Positions 2,102 to 25,779 of a stretch of DNA of 48,892 nucleotides are shown one piece after another. The position numbers and the translations under genes are program-made. The DNA is from Promethearchaeota archaeon (GTDB lineage Archaea > Asgardarchaeota > Lokiarchaeia > Sigyniarchaeales > SOKP01). The first letter of the stretch is position 1, and the number at the start of each line of letters is the position of its first letter. The stretch lies in assembly GCA_048941015.1 (NCBI GenBank), contig JBHLNZ010000018.1:1-48892 (forward strand). The letters run 5' to 3'. The notes below the pieces were generated by a model, which saw only the letters and a program-made list of their open reading frames with translations, searched no databases and had not been told where the DNA came from.

Positions 2102-2671
2102 CTATTCTTCTTCTTCAGCTTCATCGAATTGATATTTAGGAAGATTTGGGTTTAGATTACAATCGGGACCACAACTAGATGAATAAAAGTCAAACCTTTC
2201 AATTTTAAAGTCAATAGGTACAACGAAATCATGTATGGATTCAATCAGTATATTAGTTTTGACATTAATTACGTTTGGATCTTTTCGGAAACATATATCC
2301 ACTAATTTCTCAATTGTCTGTAAATCAGAAGCAGCAATGAAGCATAACAAATTGAATTCTCCAGAGATTTTGAATGCATGGTTTATAAAAGGACAATTTC
2401 TAACTTTTTCTACAATACTTTCGACATCTTTAGTTGATATAAAGACAATTGCTGTTTTGATATCAACTTTTTTAATATTAAAACCAACTTGTTTTGTTAA
2501 GAGGTTTTTGCGTTCCAATTTTATAATTCTGGCACCCACAGCAGGTTGAGATTTTTCAATTTCTCTCGCAATCTCACTATGAGTAATATCAGGGTCTTTT
2601 TCAATCATTTGGATGATTTTATAATCATCATCATCTATATCCAATAATTCTTTAAAGGTTTTTTTTATCAT
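2102..2671 (-). CDS. Lrp/AsnC family transcriptional regulator (paralog of 1503..2042)
   Basis: IDDDDYKII..I..DP HTH, SQPAVGARI, AFKISGEFN; C-terminal CGPDC tail. Confidence 0.92.
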   Translation of the reverse strand: MIKKTFKELLDIDDDDYKIIQMIEKDPDITHSEIAREIEKSQPAVGARIIKLERKNLLTKQVGFNIKKVDIKTAIVFISTKDVESIVEKVRNCPFINHAFKISGEFNLLCFIAASDLQTIEKLVDICFRKDPNVINVKTNILIESIHDFVVPIDFKIERFDFYSSSCGPDCNLNPNLPKYQFDEAEEEE

Positions 2672-2851
2672 ATTCTTGTACCTAGAGATGCTATTTTAAT
2701 TTAAATTTTATTTCTATGAATATAAAATTTAAGTGTGGTTAATATTAAAAATTATGAATAGTTTTGATTATGGGATTTTATTTTATAAATTATTTATAGA
2801 AATATTGTTAAATGATATAAGTTTTGACTTTATATTTTGTTTTTTTATTTT

Positions 2852-3835
2852 TTACAAAAAACTAGTAAATATTTGGAGAAAGAAAATAATTATAGTATAT
2901 CCAACAAATCCCAGAATAAAGTAAAGCGGTTTCCCTTTTTCCTTTTCTGGAATTACTTCACGAACAATAGTATATAAAATTACTCCTGAAATGAAAGAAT
3001 ATAATACGTAAAAAACTTCTAAATCAAATGGATTTATTGGAAAAATAAATTCAAAAAATAGTTCAATAAAAATTCCTAATAAAACACCACTTGCTAAGAT
3101 ATATTTTTTAACTTTATTATCGGCGATATCTGTTTTATCATAAATCTCTAAGTCTGTAAATATAATATGGGTCTCAGATCTATTTGTTATAATGGCTCTA
3201 GACCAAGCAAATATAAAGAACAGAATACCAGATATGAATTCAATTGAAAGTAAACCTGCTAATATGATTCCTACAAGCAAATGATATATAAAATTTGTAA
3301 AAAATCGCAATCTTGATAAATCTTCACTAATACGATTTTGAATTTTAATTTTATAACGATTTATTTCACTTAGCATTTCTTCTTCCTGTTGATTTAAGTT
3401 CGAAATTGTTTGAGCAATATCTCTTACCGCAGATTCATCTAAACTGTCGTTAGTTAGTTCTTTCGTTAATATTTTTTCGATATTTCTCTCAACTTCTTCC
3501 AGTGTTTTCTCTTTTTGTACTAATTTACGCATTCTTTTCTGAGACTTTGCTTCTACTTTCTGAAGGATTAATTTTTCTGATATGTGGACAAAAGAAAAAC
3601 CAATTACCACAAAAAGATATTCAAAAATTACAATTTCAAAGGGATAGACTGGAATACCTATTGCAACCTCTGGAAGCAAAACAAGAAAAAAGTATGATAA
3701 TGAAATTCCAGCTATTAAAGAAATATGGAGTCTAGGATGTTTATGTTCATAAAAATCAGCGATAAAGAAAAAAATACCAAAGACCAAGGATATTATCGCT
3801 ACAATTAAAAAATTCTCAATCATTATTATTCTCAA
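2852..3835 (-). CDS. ZIP-transporter-like membrane protein with cytoplasmic coiled-coil insertion
   Basis: About 7-8 hydrophobic segments; AGISLSYFFLVLLPE and SGVILYTIVREVIPE resemble ZIP TM2/TM7 motifs; charged helical insert of about 85 aa after TM3. Confidence 0.55.
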   Translation of the reverse strand: MRIIMIENFLIVAIISLVFGIFFFIADFYEHKHPRLHISLIAGISLSYFFLVLLPEVAIGIPVYPFEIVIFEYLFVVIGFSFVHISEKLILQKVEAKSQKRMRKLVQKEKTLEEVERNIEKILTKELTNDSLDESAVRDIAQTISNLNQQEEEMLSEINRYKIKIQNRISEDLSRLRFFTNFIYHLLVGIILAGLLSIEFISGILFFIFAWSRAIITNRSETHIIFTDLEIYDKTDIADNKVKKYILASGVLLGIFIELFFEFIFPINPFDLEVFYVLYSFISGVILYTIVREVIPEKEKGKPLYFILGFVGYTIIIFFLQIFTSFL

Positions 3836-3929
3836 GATTGAAGTTTTTAATATAAGGTTTTTGGTAATTTAAATAATTTTTATTTTTATAATTTCATAAT
3901 GACTATCTGAACATTTAAAGTGAAAAATC

Positions 3930-4835
3930 ATGGAATTTCTGATAATAAGTTCAACTGAAGATAAGGCTTCAATGAACATTAGGGATAAATTATTGAATTC
4001 AAACATGTATTCATTTAGTGAGATTGATTTATTTTGGCATGACAAAAGATTATATCAATTTGAGGGTTTTAAAGAAAAGAAAACAAGGAATAACATTTTA
4101 GACCACAATCAAATTTATCTCGGTTTAACTGATGAGCGATTAATTTTTTTGGATAGCTTAAAATTAAATAAATCCAAAATAAATCCAGATTTAGTTATAT
4201 TTGCTAGTCGCCACGTATCTAAAACAGAGAGACCTGCTCTATTAACACATACAACAGGAAATTGGAGTAAAGAAGCTGATTTTGGAGGAGTTCCTTGCGA
4301 TTTATCTTTAACGAGTGCTTTACTCCATAAAGCAGTTTTTATTAGTTTAATAAAAGAATCAAATATACAGAATCTAAAAAAATTTTCAATTGATATTGAA
4401 GTTACTCATCATGGTCCAACATCATTAGAAAAACCTTTAATTTATATAGAACTGGGTAGCAGTAAAGAAGAATGGGGATTTGAAAAAGCAGGTATAGTAT
4501 TAGCAAATGCTATAATAAACAGCATTTATCAGGTATTAGATTTCCAAATAGAAGGAAAGCAAAAAATTGGACTTGGATTTGGGGGTACCCATTATGCTCC
4601 AAATTTTAATCGTATAATTAAAAATAAAGATATTGCGATGTCTTTTATATGCCCTAAATACTTTATTCAAGAGCTTAATAAAGAAATTATCTCATTGATG
4701 ATTAAAAATACTTATGAGAAAATAGATTATTTCATTATCGATTGGAAAGGAACAAATTCCGAGGATAAAAAGCATTTGATTCCAATTTTAGAAGGTTTTA
4801 ATATACCTATTAAAAAAACTAAAGAATTCGACTGA
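3930..4835 (+). CDS. dtdA: Archaeal D-aminoacyl-tRNA deacylase (DTD2)
   Basis: S..D.AS.NI, FASRH.S, L..HTTGN, EVTHHGPT, ELGS, GFGGTHYAP motifs. Confidence 0.93.
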   Translation: MEFLIISSTEDKASMNIRDKLLNSNMYSFSEIDLFWHDKRLYQFEGFKEKKTRNNILDHNQIYLGLTDERLIFLDSLKLNKSKINPDLVIFASRHVSKTERPALLTHTTGNWSKEADFGGVPCDLSLTSALLHKAVFISLIKESNIQNLKKFSIDIEVTHHGPTSLEKPLIYIELGSSKEEWGFEKAGIVLANAIINSIYQVLDFQIEGKQKIGLGFGGTHYAPNFNRIIKNKDIAMSFICPKYFIQELNKEIISLMIKNTYEKIDYFIIDWKGTNSEDKKHLIPILEGFNIPIKKTKEFD

Positions 4836-16934: not shown

Positions 16935-17975
16935 TTAGTTTAAAATTAGCATTTTATCTTTAACTTGATCACTAAGTAATATTCTATAATAGTTTGCTTG
17001 ATTGCGATAGCTTACTTTTTCTAATTTGCCTTCAACTAAAACAAGCTCATCATCTTTAGCTTGCTCACAAAATCTACCTCTAAAGGAATTTATTTCTGTT
17101 ATTTCTCTTATATTAAAATTTTTAAATGTTAAATCGCTTTCTAATAACGTTAAAGGTTCGATTTTGTAAGAACAAGGAGTGAAAATAGAATTACTCGAAT
17201 TAGTTATCTTAGCCTTAATTTTTACCCTTCCTAGATTCTTAAATTGATAATCATAATAAGAACCCTTCCAATCTCTCGGGCTTTTAATATATCTAATAAA
17301 AAAATCTGTATTTAGAAATTTACCTTGATGAAGTTTTCGCTGTTCGCTTTTAAAAAAATCTTCATATTTGATATCTGAACCTCCTACTCTCCAAAGATAA
17401 TGAGAGTGATATTCATTTATATCATATCTTCTGCAAATATTCGATTGTTCTAAAATCTCCTCTAAACTAGTTTGAAAATTCAAACTTGTTTTAGTTCCAT
17501 ATATTATAATATCAATATCTGAATTTATTTTATTTAAGCCAATCATAAGAGAACCTGAAATACCAATTGATTCTTTAGGTATCTTTCCTTTATCTATAAA
17601 TAATTCACATAATTCTTTTGATTCTTTTTCGATATTATTTAAGTTATTTTTTATTTGTAAATTTTTTAAACAATCTCTTGGATGATAAATAATCTTAATA
17701 TCTTTAAGTTCTACTCCTTGAAGTTCTAAATCAAATTGATTTGAATAAAATAAATATTGAGGAAATTTCTCCTTTAAAAGTGAATATCTCTCATTGAAAG
17801 CATAAACCTTTTTATAAGAGAGATTATCTTTTATTCTATCTCCAGTTTTATCGGGATAGAATCTTATAAAACAAATTTTTCGATCTTTTGGATGATGGTA
17901 ACCTTTTACATCAAAAAATAAGTGATTTTCTTTCGTTTCTACGTAATCTCCTTCAATACCTAAAGGAATTTTCAT
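16935..17975 (-). CDS. Predicted nucleotidyltransferase (archaeal pol-beta-like family)
   Basis: GISGS...G....SDIDIIIYG motif; N-terminal F.VKGY.HP, C-terminal OB-like V.GKLE. Confidence 0.75.
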   Translation of the reverse strand: MKIPLGIEGDYVETKENHLFFDVKGYHHPKDRKICFIRFYPDKTGDRIKDNLSYKKVYAFNERYSLLKEKFPQYLFYSNQFDLELQGVELKDIKIIYHPRDCLKNLQIKNNLNNIEKESKELCELFIDKGKIPKESIGISGSLMIGLNKINSDIDIIIYGTKTSLNFQTSLEEILEQSNICRRYDINEYHSHYLWRVGGSDIKYEDFFKSEQRKLHQGKFLNTDFFIRYIKSPRDWKGSYYDYQFKNLGRVKIKAKITNSSNSIFTPCSYKIEPLTLLESDLTFKNFNIREITEINSFRGRFCEQAKDDELVLVEGKLEKVSYRNQANYYRILLSDQVKDKMLILN

Positions 17976-17995: not shown

Positions 17996-19099
17996 TTAAT
18001 ATTTTGAAGGAGTTTTTGTTTTTATTTTATGTTTTGGTATTTCTTTAACTTTCCGTAATTCTTTCTCAAAATTTCTTTTTTCGCTAAGAAACCTTTCTTG
18101 ATCCCTTTCTAACTTCTCGCGTTCTCTCCTTATTACATTCTTTTCATTATCTATAAGTAATTTTTCTTTATCTAATTGTTTATAGTTATCATTAAGTTTT
18201 TTTAGTTTACTCTCTAAATCATTAATGTTGCGCTCTAAAGAATAATAAGTATCTTCCGCTTTAGGAATTTTTTTATTTAACTCTTTTAATCTTGCTTCTT
18301 GTTGTTTTTTTTTATTCTCCAAACTTTTTACATCATTTTCTACCTTATCTCTTAACTTTTCCAATTCAGATTTTTTTTTATCAATTTCACGAGCCTTAAG
18401 CTTTAAATCTTTTTTCTTATATCGTGATTTTTCTCGCTCTTCTTTTAATTTTCTTTTCTCATCTTCAATTCGATTCTTTTCATCATAAATTTCTCTTTTT
18501 AGATCATTAATTTCTTTTTTTATACTATCTCTTTCATTAGAGAGGCTTTTAATTTGATTTCTTAAGTCCATTAATTCATTTTCTAATTTTTCAATGGTTC
18601 TTTGTAAGGCATCTTCCCTTCTTTCCATACCTGGTATTTTAGATTTGATTTCTTTTATACGATCTTCCGCGTTATCTCTTTCTCTATGTAAATCTCTCTT
18701 TTCTTTTTCCAAATCGTCTTTTAACTTGTCTAATTTCGCTTGATAATTATTTAATTCAGCATTTTTTTGATCTAGTTCTCTTTCTTTTAATCGTAGTGCA
18801 TTTTGATTTTGCTTTTTTTCATTACTCATTCGTTGTAGGTCGCTTTGTAATTTTTCTCGTTGATTCAAAAGATCTTTAACTTCAAGTTCTTTCTCTTTTC
18901 TTTTTTTTTCAAGATCCTTTATATTGTCTTTATAACCCTCAAGCTTTTCAATTAACTTTTCCCATTCAATTGTTTCTTTCTTTAATTTAACCCTTTCTTC
19001 CTTAATTTGTTTGAGTAATTTTGCATCTGGAATTATATCTAATTCTTCTTCCGGAGTTTTTTCTCGAATTTGATATTTCGGTATTTTATTATCTTTCAT
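17996..19099 (-). CDS. Long coiled-coil protein with internal duplication
   Basis: About 320 aa of K/E/R/L heptads, short Pro-containing head and tail. Confidence 0.8.
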   Translation of the reverse strand: MKDNKIPKYQIREKTPEEELDIIPDAKLLKQIKEERVKLKKETIEWEKLIEKLEGYKDNIKDLEKKRKEKELEVKDLLNQREKLQSDLQRMSNEKKQNQNALRLKERELDQKNAELNNYQAKLDKLKDDLEKEKRDLHRERDNAEDRIKEIKSKIPGMERREDALQRTIEKLENELMDLRNQIKSLSNERDSIKKEINDLKREIYDEKNRIEDEKRKLKEEREKSRYKKKDLKLKAREIDKKKSELEKLRDKVENDVKSLENKKKQQEARLKELNKKIPKAEDTYYSLERNINDLESKLKKLNDNYKQLDKEKLLIDNEKNVIRREREKLERDQERFLSEKRNFEKELRKVKEIPKHKIKTKTPSKY

Positions 19100-19294: not shown

Positions 19295-19684
19295 TTGGAT
19301 TTTGATGAGGAATTTGATGAGGAATTTGATGAAGATTTGGATGAAGATCTAGATGATGAATTAGATGAACCTACTGTAAAGAGTCCTGAAGAAGAAGTTA
19401 AATCCAAAACTCCTACTATAAAAACACCTGCTAAAGGAAAAAAGATTTCAGTATTCTTTTTATCTACTATTGGGCCTGGTGAGAAAAAACAAAAACTTTT
19501 AGTTTATACTGGAAATAAGATAGGAGATATAAAAGAAACTGTTGCTAATTTATTCGGTCTAGATCCTAGAGATTTTCATTTATCATCTGGCGGAATTACC
19601 ATGGAAGAGGACGCTGCATTAAGTGAATATAATGTAGTTGAGGGAGATGACATTTTACTGATTCCAGCAAGCACTGCTGGTTAA
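19295..19684 (+). CDS. Ubiquitin-like modifier 1 (acidic N-terminal extension; mature C-terminus ...IPASTAG)
   Basis: Beta-grasp pattern: I.DIK..V...FGL.P..F.L...G..M.ED..L.EYNV.EGD.I.L; SD AAGGTGG then TTG. Confidence 0.88.
   Translation: MDFDEEFDEEFDEDLDEDLDDELDEPTVKSPEEEVKSKTPTIKTPAKGKKISVFFLSTIGPGEKKQKLLVYTGNKIGDIKETVANLFGLDPRDFHLSSGGITMEEDAALSEYNVVEGDDILLIPASTAG
19301..19369 (+). repeat. 12-bp coding tandem repeat x6 encoding (F/L)D(E/D)(E/D)
   Basis: tttgatgaggaa x2, tttgatgaagat, ttggatgaagat, ctagatgatgaa, ttagatgaa. Confidence 0.8.
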
Positions 19685-19724
19685 AGATGTTATAACAATT
19701 TAAATGGATATTAACGTTAAATTT

Positions 19725-20519
19725 TTATTTTTTTTCTTTTCTAGAAGGAATTAAAACTATTTCATCATCATCTTCTATGTTATAATCAATAATTTCTAAA
19801 TTTTCATCCAATATTATGCCTCCAGAAGATAACACAAAATTGCTTAGATCATAATTAAATAAAATTGCGATCTTTTCTTTAATTTCAATTACCAATTCAG
19901 AAGTTTCAATAATAATTATTTTTGTTTTTTCACCCGGTTCTATTAATGATCTAATGTAAACTCGGATTTTATCTTGCATTCCAATATTTATTTTAGGTGG
20001 GGTAAAAATGATTTCTTGATCAGTATTATCTTTGTTTCTAAACATATCTTCAATTAATTGATTTCTTTCCTGAGGAGAAAAATATAATAATTCTCTTAAG
20101 AAAAATATTTTATCCATTTTTGAAAGATCTAACAGATTTATTTTATCTAATTCCTCTGGAGTAAAAACTGAAAATATATAGTCATCCATTGTATCTACAT
20201 CTTCAAACAATTCATTTGAATTCGCGTATTTATCTATTAAAGGCATTGCATCAAAATAATCCTCAATAAATTCATTTGATTGTTTTTTTAGTGATTTCTG
20301 CTTTGAAATATATTTAGGTTTTATGATTCTTTTATCTGGAATAGATCTAGATTGTATTATTGTATAAATGGTACCAGTAGATAATACTGCCATACTGCTA
20401 ATATTAAAAATAACATAAAATGGAAGAGAGTCTATTTTTAAGAAGAAGAGAATAATGTAGATTAAGATGAAAATGAAGTAAAGAGCGATTAAGCTAAAGA
20501 ATCTATAGTTTCTTCTCAT
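19725..20519 (-). CDS. Membrane-anchored protein with C-terminal ubiquitin-like domain lacking a terminal Gly
   Basis: Two N-terminal TM helices; last about 80 aa align with the two Ubls (S.I.PGEK, EIKE.I..LF, F.LSSGG, DYNI.D.DEI.LIP); ends SRKEKK. Confidence 0.85.
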   Translation of the reverse strand: MRRNYRFFSLIALYFIFILIYIILFFLKIDSLPFYVIFNISSMAVLSTGTIYTIIQSRSIPDKRIIKPKYISKQKSLKKQSNEFIEDYFDAMPLIDKYANSNELFEDVDTMDDYIFSVFTPEELDKINLLDLSKMDKIFFLRELLYFSPQERNQLIEDMFRNKDNTDQEIIFTPPKINIGMQDKIRVYIRSLIEPGEKTKIIIIETSELVIEIKEKIAILFNYDLSNFVLSSGGIILDENLEIIDYNIEDDDEIVLIPSRKEKK

Positions 20520-20601
20520 GGTTATTATTCAATTTTTTTCTAATTTTCTAATGTGTCTTTTAAAATATAAATTCAATTGGAATAAATTTGAAATTTAAAT
20601 C

Positions 20602-21273
20602 TTATCTATTAATCATTGATTTGATTAAATTTTGATATCTATCTAAATCTAACATAAATATTGTTTTTTTATTTTCCTTTTCGGTTTTTACTATTTTTAA
20701 ATCACTTAAAATATTAAGGTATTTTTTAATTGTGTTATAGTTCTTTTTTAATTGAGTTGCTATATCTGTTAATTTTAATTTTTTATTTTCTCTTTTCATA
20801 AACTCAATTATTTGTTTTGTAATATCTTGATTTAAGTAATAATAAAGTTCATCAAATTCTGGATTTGATTCAAAATGAAAAATTATTCGTTGATTTTCAA
20901 TTTTTCTTGACCTAGTAAATTGAAATTTTTCCAAGCATGAAAGATGCCAGAGAGCTTGATTGCTTCCAATATTTATCGCTCTCATGATTTCATTAATATT
21001 GGATGGATTCTTCTTGATATAATTATAAATTTCATTTCTTATTGGATGCTCAATAATGTTATTTCTCATTAATTTCGTTCCTGGAATTAATATTCGTTTT
21101 TTAATTAGTTTTTTAATGATTTTCTCAATCATATTCCTATTTAAATAAGGATAACCTCTTGCCCTATTACTAATAAAACTTATAATATCTTCTAGTGAAA
21201 AGAAGGGCTTCTTTTTTAAGTATTCCTTAACTAATTCAAAAACGACAGAATCAACTTTATCAGGAGAACTCAT
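20602..21273 (-). CDS. Multi-winged-helix transcriptional regulator
   Basis: R.EIY.YIK.NP..INEI.RA...G.....WHL..L and TDIA..L...YNTI.KYL..L wHTH segments. Confidence 0.8.
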   Translation of the reverse strand: MSSPDKVDSVVFELVKEYLKKKPFFSLEDIISFISNRARGYPYLNRNMIEKIIKKLIKKRILIPGTKLMRNNIIEHPIRNEIYNYIKKNPSNINEIMRAINIGSNQALWHLSCLEKFQFTRSRKIENQRIIFHFESNPEFDELYYYLNQDITKQIIEFMKRENKKLKLTDIATQLKKNYNTIKKYLNILSDLKIVKTEKENKKTIFMLDLDRYQNLIKSMINR

Positions 21274-21516
21274 AATTTATTTCTTTGATTTTATTGAGAA
21301 ATTTACACTTTACATCCAAATCTTCTCTCTAAAACGATATTTTCTACCTTATATATATTATTAGATGTTCATTTAATTTATAGATATATCTTAGTAAAAT
21401 TCGAATAGAATTAAATTAGCTTTTAAAAATTTCAAATTCATTCCAAAGGGTTTTATAATACTATATTTTCATGTTTTTAATAAAAAAAAAACACATAAAA
21501 GAAAGAAGTGATTTGA

Positions 21517-21852
21517 ATGAGTTTTAAAGAAAATTTTGATGAGGAATTAGAACCTGTCAAATCTAAAACACCAATATCTAAAACTCCTGCAGCAGGAAGA
21601 AAATTAACTTTATATTTCATGTCTACCATAGGGCCTGGTGAAAAAAAGGAAAAGTTAATCGTAAATGACGCTAACTATGTAAGAGATATAAAGCAAACCT
21701 TAGGAAATTTATTTGGACTTGATCCTGATGAGTTTCATTTATCATCTGGTGGAGTGACTATGGATGAAGATAATCAATTGAGAGATTACAATGTAAATGA
21801 CGGCGACGATATTCTTTTGATTCCTGCCAGTACTGCGGGTAAACTTATATAA
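21517..21852 (+). CDS. Ubiquitin-like modifier 2 (pro-form, ...IPASTAG-KLI)
   Basis: Paralog of 19295..19684; L.DYNV.DGD.I.L ubiquitin-like signature; first gene of the E1-E2-JAMM-RING run. Confidence 0.9.
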   Translation: MSFKENFDEELEPVKSKTPISKTPAAGRKLTLYFMSTIGPGEKKEKLIVNDANYVRDIKQTLGNLFGLDPDEFHLSSGGVTMDEDNQLRDYNVNDGDDILLIPASTAGKLI

Positions 21853-21875
21853 ATATTCTTCATAAATTATAATAT

Positions 21876-21912: not shown

Positions 21913-21932
21913 TAATATGGATAGTGATAATA

Positions 21933-23156
21933 ATGGATAAAAATTCAGATTTTTTTGCAAAAGAATTGTCTATCGAAGAGAGAAACTTATATGATCGGCA
22001 GTTCCGTCTCGAGGGGTGGTCACAAAAATTAGTAAAGAACTCAAGAATATTAATTATTGGCATTGGAGGATTAGGGTGCGAAATTGCTAAAAATCTAGCT
22101 ATGTTAGGTTTGGGCCACTTGGATCTTGTTGATTTAGATATTATTGAGCATTCTAATTTAAACCGTCAAATTCTTTTCACGGGGGCTAAGATAGGAGCAC
22201 CTAAAGCTGTTGTAGCAGCTAAAAAATTATCAGAAATAAATCCTAATATTGTTGTTAAAGGATATCACACTTCACTTGAGCGGTTAGACCCTGCAATATA
22301 TCAAAATGCAGACGTTATTATCGGGGGTCTTGACTCAATGAATGCACGATTAAACTTAAATACTCAATGTATACGATTTAGAAAACCATTAGTAGATGGA
22401 GGGGTATCTGGTTATCATGGTCATATATATACGATCTTTCCTTATGAAAATGCTTGCTATGAATGTAATCCCTTACCTGAAGTAGAAAGCGATGAAATGG
22501 CAGCATGTACTGTGGTTGGAATACCACGGAAACGGATTCATTGTGTTTTTAAAGGAGATATGGCATTTAGAGAAAAATTTGATAGAGATCCAAATCCAAA
22601 AGATATAAACGATATAGAATTTATTCAAAAGTTTGCAAATGATTTGGTAAATAAACATAATTTTTTACCGGAATATACCGCAGATGATATAGTGAAAATC
22701 CTTGATAGACACGATCCTGGGATAATTACTATAAATGCAGTTATTTCTGCTCTACAATCACATGAGGCTATAAAAATTCTCCATTGGAATAAGGGACATA
22801 AAGGATTAGGAGAACCAATAAAAAGTTATGTAATTTTTAATGCAATGACAATGAAATTCTATCATATTGAAAAACCGAGAAATCCAGATTGTTCTCAATG
22901 TGGTAAAAAAGTTCGAAGAGTAGCTATAAAAATGAGATCTCAATCACCCTGTATAAATATAATTAAGATATTGGAGAAAAATGGATTTAAATTAGAACCT
23001 GATTTTGAACCTGTTATAACTTTGCTAGATTTCAATGAGATTAAAGTAATTGATTTAGAAAAAACTCCAATTAATAATGGTTTAAGAAATTACGAATTTT
23101 TAACCGTTGCAGGATTTATGGGTGGAGAAATTTATGTAACTTTAAAATTAAAATAA
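21933..23156 (+). CDS. Ubiquitin-like activating enzyme E1 (ThiF domain plus catalytic-Cys domain plus UFD-like tail; UBA2/UBA3-like)
   Basis: YDRQ, GIGGLGCE, D.D.IE.SNLNRQ.LF, LDS..AR, CYEC, catalytic AACT...PR...HC, NAVI, CSQC. ATG 21933 or GTG 21924. Confidence 0.93.
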   Translation: MDKNSDFFAKELSIEERNLYDRQFRLEGWSQKLVKNSRILIIGIGGLGCEIAKNLAMLGLGHLDLVDLDIIEHSNLNRQILFTGAKIGAPKAVVAAKKLSEINPNIVVKGYHTSLERLDPAIYQNADVIIGGLDSMNARLNLNTQCIRFRKPLVDGGVSGYHGHIYTIFPYENACYECNPLPEVESDEMAACTVVGIPRKRIHCVFKGDMAFREKFDRDPNPKDINDIEFIQKFANDLVNKHNFLPEYTADDIVKILDRHDPGIITINAVISALQSHEAIKILHWNKGHKGLGEPIKSYVIFNAMTMKFYHIEKPRNPDCSQCGKKVRRVAIKMRSQSPCINIIKILEKNGFKLEPDFEPVITLLDFNEIKVIDLEKTPINNGLRNYEFLTVAGFMGGEIYVTLKLK

Positions 23157-23258: not shown

Positions 23259-23786
23259 ATGAGTATAAGAAGTAGTCGGGTATCCCGTGATTTTGCGGGA
23301 CTAAAAAAAATGCTTAAAGAAGGGAGTCTTGTTCAGTTAATACCATTTAATCCTAAAAACAAAAGTATTGATCACTTAGCGTTAACAATTAAAGGCCCTA
23401 AAGGTACTGCTTATTCAGGTGGACTTTTTAAATTAGAAATGAAGTTCCCTACTCAATATCCGAAGCAACCACCTTTTGTAAGAATGCATACTCCTATTTG
23501 GCACCCCAACTTTTGGCCAAAACCGAGTGAATATAAAGGTCAAAGAAATATTTGCCTAGCATTAATAGATCCATCTTTAATTGGACAAAAAGGTGGATGG
23601 AGCCCATCAAAAACTGCTGTAACAGTTGTTCAGGCAATAATTGCTATGTTAAACACTCGAGGTAAATTTGTAAATCCAACAGATGTTTTTAATAAAAAGG
23701 CAGCCATGGAAATGATGAAAAACCCTAAGTTTTTTGAGAGAAAAGTTAAAAATTTAGTTAAAAAGTATGCTAAAAGTAAGTGGTGA
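23259..23786 (+). CDS. Ubiquitin-conjugating enzyme E2 (UBC fold)
   Basis: I.GP.GT.Y.GG.F.L...FP..YP..PP.V...TPIWHPN...ICL, W.P; catalytic Cys codon at 23553. Confidence 0.95.
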   Translation: MSIRSSRVSRDFAGLKKMLKEGSLVQLIPFNPKNKSIDHLALTIKGPKGTAYSGGLFKLEMKFPTQYPKQPPFVRMHTPIWHPNFWPKPSEYKGQRNICLALIDPSLIGQKGGWSPSKTAVTVVQAIIAMLNTRGKFVNPTDVFNKKAAMEMMKNPKFFERKVKNLVKKYAKSKW

Positions 23787-23794
23787 AATTTAAA

Positions 23795-24613
23795 ATGGGA
23801 GAGTTAAATAAACATAGAGCATCTATTAAAGAAGAAATAAAGACAAAAATTAAGGAAATAATCAAGAAAGAATTGTTAGAAGAAATCTATGAAGAATTAA
23901 AGTTAGAAGAAAAAGAACTAGTTAATGAAATTAGTACTATGATTACAAAAAGGGTACCTGAAATGCAAACAATAAAACATTCAAATAATCAAGCTCCCAT
24001 AGAAGCCACAATAAAAAAAGAGCAACTAAAAGTAATTCCTATAGATAATATTGAAAAAGAAGTATACATTTCAGTTAAAGCGATTTTAAAGGTCGCTAGT
24101 CATGCACTAAAATATGCTAATTCAAAGGTTCCAAGAAATAATTGGGTAGAAGTTATAGGTTTACTTGCAGGTAAATTAGATAATAAAAATGGAGTCTTAC
24201 ATATCGAGGATTACTATCCTATGGGGCATGGAACGGCTGTTTATGCTGAAATAAAAGATTATAAAAATTATGCCAGGGCATTTAGAGATATTAAAAGAGA
24301 GAAATTATTTATATGTGGTTGGGCACATAGTCATCCTTCTTATGGTTGTTTTATGAGTAATGAGGATATTGGGACTCAATCGAGGTATCAAACTCTCTGG
24401 GATAAAGCTGTTGCACTAGTTATTGATCCTTACCTTATTGATGGAACATCTGCAGGTTTTGAAATCTATCGTGCAGATCTGAAAACAAGAACCTGGTACC
24501 CTTTAGTATATGGTATTAAAGGATCTTTAGATATAAGAATGTTGCCTGAAATCTTAGAATTTATGAATCCTATAATTCAAGGGAAACCAGCTTATTTAGA
24601 ATATGATGAATAG
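23795..24613 (+). CDS. JAMM/MPN+ metalloisopeptidase (Rpn11/CSN5-like) with N-terminal helical extension
   Basis: VYIS..A.LK...HA, EVIGLL.G, GW.HSHP.YG.F.S..D..TQ, A.VIDP. ATG 23795 follows SD GGTGA overlapping the E2 stop. Confidence 0.93.
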   Translation: MGELNKHRASIKEEIKTKIKEIIKKELLEEIYEELKLEEKELVNEISTMITKRVPEMQTIKHSNNQAPIEATIKKEQLKVIPIDNIEKEVYISVKAILKVASHALKYANSKVPRNNWVEVIGLLAGKLDNKNGVLHIEDYYPMGHGTAVYAEIKDYKNYARAFRDIKREKLFICGWAHSHPSYGCFMSNEDIGTQSRYQTLWDKAVALVIDPYLIDGTSAGFEIYRADLKTRTWYPLVYGIKGSLDIRMLPEILEFMNPIIQGKPAYLEYDE

Positions 24614-24645: not shown

Positions 24646-25779
24646 GTGGCTAAAAAGAAGGTTTTAGCAATAATTTTCATTCTTTTTTTAATAATTGGTA
24701 TAATACACGGTGCAATTATCTCAACTTCATTAAATATTTTTTTAACTTGGCCACTTATCGGTCTATGGATCATCTTTACACTTAAGATTTTAGAAAATGT
24801 AAAAAGGCATCGAGAATTTAATTCTCCACACAACACTGCTTTTTTTGTTATGATTCCTTTATTTATCGGAATTTTTTATTCTATTTGGGGTTATTTTACA
24901 GGAATATTAGGTGAGAATCTGATTGAAGGTTCAAATTTATATTTCAGTTGGTGGAGTATTATTTTCGGATTTCCATTTGTACTTTATGGATCTTTTTCAT
25001 TATATCGTTGTTTTAAGAAATATAATGTAATCTATTTTGGAACTAAATCAGTAAAAGCTAAAGCAGTAGGATACGTTTTAAGTTTCATTATTATTCTTTT
25101 TATTGTGATATACTGGATAGCATTTTATGCATTTATGGAGTTTTATAATTCTCCGTTAATCCCATTTCACTTCTCTTTAGATCTTAATCTTTTACTGGTT
25201 TTAATTATGACAATCTTAATACTAATTGTTTTTGGATTTATTAACTCACAAAGATCGTTACCATCGTTAACTCGTGATTATATTACCCAACGATCAAGAA
25301 GATTAAACGCATTAACATCTGCATCCACACTTAATTCTCCAAATAGACAAAATAGGTCAGCCAGACCGAGCCGATCATCTAGAACAACTACGCGTACCAC
25401 CATAAGAGCAACACCAAATATACTTAGGCGAACAACTAAAACTAAAACAAGAGTGACTACTCAGACTAAAAGTATAAAAGTTCGAGACTTTACAAAATAT
25501 AGACCGAAAGCATCATATTTATCTGTAGAAGATTTTAAGTGCATTTTCTGTTTTAAGTTGCCAAAACTACCAGAAGATCGAGGAAGAGGGATAGTTATAT
25601 GCCCAAACTGTAGATATCCTGCACATGCAGATGAATTCAAAGATTGGATGAGAACGTCAAATCTTTGTTCAAGATGCAGTGCTCCTATTTCATCTAACTA
25701 TAGAAGAAATCCTAAAATAATTAGTGTAAAGGATTATTTAGTTATTTGTTCGCATTTTGTAAAGAAAAAGAATCAGTAA
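24646..25779 (+). CDS. Polytopic membrane protein with C-terminal RING-like finger, putative E3 ligase
   Basis: Six hydrophobic segments, R/S/T-rich linker, C-x2-C-x16-C-x2-C-x4-H-x2-E-x3-W-x6-C-x2-C (25540-25677); operonic with E1/E2/JAMM. Confidence 0.8.
   Translation: MAKKKVLAIIFILFLIIGIIHGAIISTSLNIFLTWPLIGLWIIFTLKILENVKRHREFNSPHNTAFFVMIPLFIGIFYSIWGYFTGILGENLIEGSNLYFSWWSIIFGFPFVLYGSFSLYRCFKKYNVIYFGTKSVKAKAVGYVLSFIIILFIVIYWIAFYAFMEFYNSPLIPFHFSLDLNLLLVLIMTILILIVFGFINSQRSLPSLTRDYITQRSRRLNALTSASTLNSPNRQNRSARPSRSSRTTTRTTIRATPNILRRTTKTKTRVTTQTKSIKVRDFTKYRPKASYLSVEDFKCIFCFKLPKLPEDRGRGIVICPNCRYPAHADEFKDWMRTSNLCSRCSAPISSNYRRNPKIISVKDYLVICSHFVKKKNQ

Follow-up and report, generated by a model that had tools for sequence, protein, structure and literature searches.

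Ubiquitin-like proteins with an Ala-Gly end and labile C-terminal tails in a Lokiarchaeial operon

Archaeal systems built from an activating enzyme (E1), a conjugating enzyme (E2) and a RING protein are regarded as forerunners of eukaryotic ubiquitylation, and all of those characterized so far use, to our knowledge, a modifier with a Gly-Gly end. Here we describe an operon whose modifiers end in Ala-Gly. The stretch of DNA that was analyzed, hereafter the window, comprises 48,892 nucleotides (positions 1 to 48,892 of the forward strand of contig JBHLNZ010000018.1, assembly GCA_048941015.1) and comes from a Lokiarchaeial (Promethearchaeota) genome bin of low GC content (~28%), which is 95% complete. 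It encodes two paralogous ubiquitin-like proteins (Ubls), here called Ubl1 and Ubl2, together with an E1, an E2, a JAMM metalloprotease and a membrane protein with a RING-like finger. Judging by sequence comparison, these two tags belong to a branch of the ubiquitin family that is spread across the Asgard archaea and has a reactive Ala-Gly C-terminus, and the three residues (KLI) that follow the Gly in Ubl2 are a recent and trivial product of mutation, not a conserved pro-peptide.

The two tags and their operon

Ubl1 (19295..19684, + strand) is a protein of 129 amino acids (aa), with an N-terminal tail of acidic (FDEE)n repeats, a KSKTP motif and a beta-grasp core, and ends in LIPASTAG directly followed by TAA. 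Its start codon is TTG, 8 nt past GGTGG, and is supported by the orthologues, which begin MDFDEEFDEEF or MGFDEEFDEEF. The 3' end of the gene reads GAT GAC ATT TTA CTG ATT CCA GCA AGC ACT GCT GGT TAA, with the codons of DDILLIPASTAG at 19646..19681 (+) and the stop codon at 19682-19684, and because this stop stands directly after the Gly, Ubl1 is born mature. Ubl2 (21517..21852, +), a paralogue of 111 aa, leads the operon and ends in LIPASTAG-KLI-TAA. Its DDILLIPASTAG codons lie at 21805..21840 (+) and are followed by the extension and stop (AAA CTT ATA TAA; 21841..21852, +), which are the conserved 3' untranslated region (UTR) TAAACTTATATAA translated with its frame shifted by one base; since it continues past the Gly, Ubl2 is a pro-form. 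Against the Pfam ubiquitin family PF00240, with a cut-off of 25.4 bits, Ubl1 scores slightly below (24.7 bits) and Ubl2 above (26.8 bits).

The two proteins are 57% identical (BLASTP, E 9e-50), and their final 12 residues, through the Gly, are the same, an agreement which these alignments indicate is not due to chance. They are old paralogues, told apart mainly by their N-terminal acidic tails and not by their mature or pro-form state. The disordered N-tail of both tags carries a [KS]-K-T-P motif (within 19295-19440 and 21517-21600 of the window), which is also found in relatives from other classes, and the (FDEE)n repeats are an addition peculiar to the Ubl1 tail. By analogy with the N-tail of SUMO, these motifs may be chain-building or recognition sites.

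Downstream of Ubl2 lie the genes expected to handle the tags. The E1 (21924..23156, +) contains a ThiF adenylation domain (PF00899, 204 bits), a CxxC zinc motif, a catalytic-Cys loop and a C-terminal extension; its start is ambiguous, as a GTG at 21924 opens the reading frame and an ATG at 21933 (MDKNSDFF) follows three codons on. Its catalytic loop CTVVGIPRKRIHC aligns with CTIRNTPSEPIHC of SAE2 (CT...HC), and its nearest relatives are SAE2, UBA1 and UBA3 (~1e-38), with UBA5 (1e-15) and ATG7 (1e-8) far behind, which places it by sequence among the canonical E1 enzymes and not with the UBA5/ATG7 kind. The E2 (23259..23786, +) has a UBC fold (PF00179, 91 bits) with an HPN motif and a Cys in NICLAL. 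The Rpn11-like JAMM/MPN+ metalloprotease (23780..24613, +; PF01398, 50.5 bits) has an intact HxHx7Sx2D motif, and 27 orthologues all share its residues E124, H183, H185, S193 and D196; its closest relative in the Protein Data Bank (PDB) is the Caldiarchaeum Rpn11-like protein 6fjv, followed by Rpn11 and CSN5. The last gene of the operon, which is conserved, encodes a polytopic membrane protein (RING-TM; 24646..25779, +) with a C-terminal Cys/His-rich RING-like finger, recognized by eye, and is on this sequence feature a candidate ligase (E3).

These genes belong to a block of ten, in the order nucleotidyltransferase-like protein, coiled-coil protein, Ubl1, membrane protein with a Ubl domain (TM-Ubl), winged-helix protein, Ubl2, E1, E2, JAMM and RING-TM, which is kept in most of the 80 loci that we sampled from species-representative genomes. 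The nucleotidyltransferase-like (16935..17975, -) and coiled-coil (17996..19099, -) genes are its conserved upstream members. TM-Ubl (19725..20519, -), found in the same position in most loci, carries its Ubl domain at the C-terminus, with 37% identity to Ubl2 and a PF00240 score of 31.1 bits. It ends LIPSRKEKK, with a conserved basic tail in place of ASTAG (PSRKEKK, PKRK or PSRKNKKK in relatives), and, lacking a terminal Gly, it is not conjugatable. The winged-helix (ArsR/TrmB-like) gene (20602..21273, -), also a conserved member of the block, encodes a possible regulator.

The Ala-Gly end, the fold and the spread of the family

Homologues carrying the motif at their end were collected as a set of 279 sequences, comprising 240 close ones (the best 120 for each Ubl) and 39 more distant representatives of clusters at 50% identity. 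The pattern [ILVMF]-P-x-[ST]-x-A-G stands at the end of 279/279. The best Ubl2 homologues all end in IP[AS]STAG with 0-4 further residues (120/120), the best Ubl1 homologues all end in IPAS[TVI]AG, mostly with nothing beyond the Gly (120/120), and the 39 distant representatives retain [IL]P-x-[ST]-x-A-G. Free family members with a Gly-Gly end were absent from the 279 homologues, and the only SGG variant lies within a multidomain protein of 937 aa. When 37 sequences that cover the family to identities as low as ~40% are aligned, no columns but L100, I102, P103, A107 and G108 are invariant. The family profile places L100 on H68 of ubiquitin without gaps, so that G108 corresponds to G76, and A107 to G75, of ubiquitin. 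A preliminary description of this locus, made from the DNA letters, had held that the two proteins share an identical end, at which Ubl1 stops and to which Ubl2 adds KLI, and that they form a family of single-Gly modifiers ending in -AG rather than -GG; the first point is confirmed in the sequence, and the second agrees with orthologues that are neither mostly Gly-Gly-ended nor devoid of the Gly, the terminal Gly of this modifier-type family being preceded by an invariant Ala.

The AlphaFold2 (AF2) model of Ubl2 shows a ubiquitin-type beta-grasp fold, with the order b-b-a-b-b-3/10-b and a core pLDDT of 85-89, preceded by the disordered N-tail. In Foldseek the model comes closest to Caldiarchaeum ubiquitin (6fno_D, E 8e-8), which is matched with a probability of 1.00, as are ubiquitin, ISG15, NEDD8, Hub1 and SUMO. 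Searched against the PDB, the family profile matches nona-ubiquitin at 1e-40 and single ubiquitin at ~5e-4. The Pfam matches of both tags are of the ubiquitin type only, with no match to Ufm1 (checked to E 0.1), ThiS (PF02597) or MoaD; UFM1 is absent from the top 50 fold matches and the top 60 profile matches, and MoaD from the top 50 fold matches. The preliminary description had noted that the IP-x4-G spacing matches UFM1, and also SAMP/MoaD, and had proposed a comparison of profiles; that comparison leads to ubiquitin, and as the gapless alignment gives P-x4-G as ubiquitin's own spacing, the resemblance to UFM1 is superficial. Kinship with UFM1 was also rejected on the E1, which is not UBA5-like, and the E2, which has HPN.

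The family was present in 100/121 Lokiarchaeial genomes sampled, and in five families of other Asgard classes, where it stands, often as two tandem tags, in a cassette with orthologous E1, E2, JAMM and RING-TM genes. Several other Asgard families had none, for example 0/43 and 0/19 genomes. In some genomes there is also a third copy of the tag, an orphan. Metagenomes also yielded precursors of several Ubls head to tail, a tri-Ubl of 372 aa (P0241) and a di-Ubl of 250 aa (P0242), in which the units, each with its own acidic/KSKTP N-tail, are joined directly after IP[HF]S[TQ]AG in the manner of polyubiquitin. Ubl domains of the Ala-Gly type are found as well at the extreme C-terminus of HerA-like ATPase (SSRAG) and CDC48_N-VWA proteins (ASTAG or ASHAG plus a tail), and inside giant proteins of 937-1395 aa (P0258, P0272, P0274, P0370, P0385).

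Tail states, trimming and a proposed mechanism

Tail states were scored in 63 operon copies (those beside the E1), 53 copies at the Ubl1 position and 49 loci with both genes. Among the operon copies 41/63 stop right at the Gly and 22/63 are extended by 1-7 residues; at the Ubl1 position the figures are 43/53 and 10/53, with extensions of 3-7 residues. These exact stops bear out the earlier view that the Gly is the mature terminus. Both genes are mature in 29/49 loci, Ubl1 is mature and Ubl2 extended, as in the window, in 10/49, both are extended in 8/49, and the reverse pattern, with Ubl1 extended and Ubl2 mature, occurs in 2/49. When mapped on the E1 tree, each paralogue has changed its tail state at least eight times.

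The origin of the tails can be read in the DNA. In 27/36 cases the first codon of the extension is one base away from a stop codon, and neither the sequence nor the length of the tail is conserved among extended copies. Mature orthologues have GGA or GGG, followed by TAA ACT TAT ATA A, and the window and its nearest relative (locus L035) have GGT AAA CTT ATA TAA. The wobble base of the Gly codon has been lost, so that the T of the former stop completes this codon and translation runs on through the conserved 3' UTR to the next TAA. The RLI tails derive in the same way, by a one-base deletion, from GGG TAG ACT TAT AA, and the TFK tails from the YF form. In related strains, whose tail variants were taken from DNA contigs of public sediment metagenomes, versions with GGA TAA, GGT TAG and GGA TAC TTT TAA occur side by side. 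Since the deletion is seen directly in the DNA, KLI is a recent mutation product. The UTR past the Ubl2 stop (TAAACTTATATAA...TTCTTCATAAA; 21841-21870, and the same place in L035-L073) is itself conserved over many species, and could serve as a terminator or in regulation.

Extended copies have kept their sequence as well as mature ones, differing from the consensus of the 80-residue core, of which 52/80 columns are invariant in 63 species, at 6.9 positions as against 6.4. This equal conservation and the existence of poly-Ubl precursors imply that a cut after Ala-Gly is required, and the drifting tails are themselves indirect evidence that such an activity exists. The preliminary description is borne out to this extent, that the Ubl2 studied here would have to be trimmed and that its operon includes a JAMM with all its catalytic residues. 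Given that its Caldiarchaeum relative matures pro-ubiquitin, this JAMM is the obvious enzyme to consider, and on modeling evidence it is the best candidate for the trimmer. A model of the complex (JAMM 90-277, Zn and Ubl2 26-111) reached a score of 0.87, the best of three controls having 0.01. It passed a mark which is reached by 58/80 solved complexes and 2/110 mismatched pairs; contacts agreed by at least 94% between runs, with a partner pLDDT of at least 90. The modeled interface brings E124, H183, H185, S193 and D196 of the JAMM together with Ubl2 residues 100-110, with the tail at the zinc site. A complex of the same kind, Caldiarchaeum Rpn11 with ubiquitin (6fnn), has been solved, so that the pass may reproduce this known structure and indicates likeness, not binding.

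We consider it probable that the Ala-Gly branch is charged and conjugated by the E1, E2 and RING-like protein of its operon, that the JAMM cuts after Ala-Gly, and that KLI is a tolerated accident. In this mechanism the canonical-type E1 would adenylate Gly108 (Gly129 in Ubl1) and load the tag on its catalytic Cys, the UBC-type E2 would take it over from the E1, and the membrane RING-like protein would steer it to targets. The Rpn11-like JAMM, by cutting after Ala-Gly, would both strip C-terminal extensions and reverse conjugates. Ubl1 would be ready at birth, and the KLI of Ubl2 would be harmless through the trimming protease, without any conserved regulatory gate.

Several points weigh against this mechanism. 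Charging, conjugation and cleavage by the operon JAMM are steps that we infer, and the acceptance of a penultimate Ala by a canonical-type E1 is putative; a literature search for the G75A change gave only G75A/G76A double mutants, which are standard non-conjugatable controls of ubiquitin and NEDD8. The RING-like membrane protein has no Pfam match. Some tails, such as YF, are common to many relatives, which may reflect common descent and is also compatible with selection. Finally, at least five further JAB/MPN genes (PF01398) are present in the genome, three on contig C62 and one each on C38 and C50, and could act as trimmers. The three on C62 encode proteins of 353-481 aa within 3.5 kb (C62:10415-13753). 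These totals are lower bounds, as the PF01398 search of the whole genome omitted the JAMM of the window itself (50.5 bits in hmmscan), so that the first look of such a search can overlook true members.

These further genes make for an alternative in which trimming and deconjugation are the work of a different protease, such as a further JAB/MPN protein, and the operon JAMM is an isopeptidase only or has some other role. It gains from the fact that in eukaryotes the maturation of Ubl precursors usually falls to enzymes distinct from the main deconjugases. We regard it as unlikely, as the operon JAMM co-occurs with the Ala-Gly tags across classes, among solved structures it is closest to the Caldiarchaeum enzyme that matures pro-ubiquitin, and the complex model threads Ubl2 100-110 over the zinc site, with the likeness to 6fnn already described. 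The search of the genome gave no C48 protease and no OTU or C78 (UFSP, PF07910) protease either, although for the latter two the control genomes were also without a match.

The preliminary description had offered another account, a designed gate, in which Ubl2 is inactive until the operon JAMM clips KLI and Ubl1 is always activatable, so that the two tags are regulated differently. The window shows exactly this pairing of a mature Ubl1 with an extended Ubl2, extensions are about twice as common on the operon copy as on Ubl1, and the JAMM is co-transcribed with Ubl2. Against this stand the loci in which both tags are mature or both extended or the pattern is reversed, the repeated changes of state in each paralogue, and tails that arose when point changes or one-base deletions let the 3' UTR be translated, without conserved sequence or length. 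Moreover, the JAMM is kept in 26/29 of the loci where both tags are mature and it has nothing to trim. On these grounds the gate did not hold up, and we judge it very unlikely.

A third possibility is that Ubl2 with its KLI goes unprocessed, the deletion having killed the covalent tag and left a non-covalent adaptor or a decaying gene, with conjugation left to Ubl1. The deletion is indeed recent and confined to the closest relatives (L035; among the close homologues KLI occurs in 2/120 and RLI in 10/120), and the block already holds one Ubl domain that is not conjugatable, TM-Ubl. The extended copies are nevertheless as well conserved as the mature ones, and extensions in many lineages, together with the poly-Ubl precursors, fit poorly with a repeated loss of the operon's lead gene, which makes this account highly improbable. 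That the Ala-Gly proteins are not modifiers at all, and are instead sulfur carriers of the ThiS/MoaD/SAMP/Urm1 type or purely non-covalent ubiquitin-like domains, is hardly credible: two family members are labeled 'molybdopterin converting factor small subunit' by one source and the tri-Ubl P0241 has a summed ThiS Pfam E-value of 9e-9, but the tags themselves end in Ala-Gly, not in the Gly-Gly of such carriers, and match ubiquitin proper, without ThiS, in profile and fold. The E1, too, differs from those of sulfur carriers, which lack a Cys domain and often have a rhodanese domain, in that it possesses a catalytic Cys domain and loop and no rhodanese domain, and the fixed neighbors of the tags include a UBC E2, a RING-like protein and a JAMM.

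A second cascade and comparison with known systems

A further, compact cassette lies on contig C50 (L136:1815-4121), consisting of a JAMM (1815-2315, +, 166 aa), an E1 (2360-3271, +, 303 aa) and an E2-like gene (3284-3847, +, 187 aa), beside which an 86-aa reading frame (3861-4121, -) ends in VIGG-FF. P-loop NTPase-like genes flank this cassette. Orthologues of the 86-aa frame were found in 55/121 Lokiarchaeial genomes, always with [IV]GG and 0-8 drifting residues at the end, and the Ala-Gly family is present in 52/54 of the other genomes that have such an orthologue; the protein itself has no Pfam match, and its AF2 model is poor (mean pLDDT 52). On contig C126 (L135:235-486, -), an 83-aa PF00240 protein with the best ubiquitin score of the genome (39.5 bits) ends in ATQAGG without an extension; it adjoins a winged-helix gene, with a ThiF-family gene ~6 kb off.

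As the two cassettes have different terminal dipeptides, each of them invariant, the penultimate residue may separate the pathways. We advance, as a tentative proposal and one that we rather doubt, that this residue is a specificity code in a cell with two or more E1-E2-JAMM cascades side by side, in which the Ala keeps the membrane-directed Ala-Gly cascade and the Gly-Gly cascade of C50 orthogonal at the level of the E1, the JAMM or both. If true, multiple insulated Ubl pathways, like those of ubiquitin, NEDD8 and SUMO, would already have existed in Asgard archaea, and would have used a discriminator position that no eukaryotic pathway with a canonical E1 uses. An invariant Ala-Gly end paired with a canonical-type E1 would show that canonical E1 enzymes do not, by their chemistry, require a di-glycine end, and the Ala-Gly branch lends itself to clean experiments on how the tail is recognized by E1, E2 and JAMM enzymes.

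The likeness of these tags to UFM1 consists of a single terminal Gly after a non-Gly residue, a Pro five residues ahead and, in UFM1, a two-residue pro-peptide, and is a resemblance only. In contrast to the UFM1/UBA5/UFC1 system, the E1 of the Ala-Gly system is far nearer to SAE2, UBA1 and UBA3, and its E2 is a canonical UBC protein with HPN, a motif absent from E2 enzymes of the UFC1 type.

The idea of one ready-made and one gated tag is, in comparison with known modifiers, an ordinary one, as the drifting and tolerated extension has a counterpart in NEDD8 of Plasmodium, which comes with or without a tail depending on the species, the tail-less form skipping processing (PMC7677368). As with this NEDD8, and with Atg8, a working modifier has a labile tail among close species; those proteins are eukaryotic, end in Gly-Gly and are matured by cysteine proteases. 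To this the window adds a tail whose origin can be traced clearly to the loss of one base.

Among archaea, the ubiquitin systems studied in the Asgard phylum itself share the E1/E2/RING logic and short-tailed precursors, as in the Helarchaeial operon, whose pro-ubiquitin ends GG-SPKN (bioRxiv 10.1101/2023.07.25.550441), and in the survey of Asgard ubiquitin and ESCRT genes (PMC9192718), but they have di-glycine ends and ties to ESCRT genes. The literature that we searched held no description of an Asgard tag ending in Ala-Gly. The nearest parallel is the ubiquitin operon of Caldiarchaeum subterraneum, which encodes a pro-ubiquitin (CsUb), an E1-like, an E2-like and a small RING finger protein and an Rpn11-like JAMM (CsRpn11) (PMC5654768, PMC6043591; PDB 6fj7, 6fnn, 6fno), and in which the pro-ubiquitin is cut by the Rpn11 homologue and charged only afterwards (PMC5654768). 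Both systems cluster a beta-grasp tag with a single-chain E1 that has a Cys domain, a UBC E2, a RING-type protein and a JAMM, and CsUb is the best structural match of the Ubl2 model as CsRpn11 is the best sequence match of the JAMM. They differ in that CsUb has a Gly-Gly end and a nine-residue pro-peptide, whereas the Ala-Gly family has its invariant dipeptide and an extension that is absent or consists of 1-7 drifting residues. The Ala-Gly system also has two to three paralogous tags and a membrane-tethered Ubl domain, long acidic N-tails with KSKTP, and a RING-like protein that is a polytopic membrane protein. Taken together, the operon of the window is a variant of the Caldiarchaeum and Helarchaeial ubiquitin operons, and its Ala-Gly family is real and, apparently, so far unstudied.

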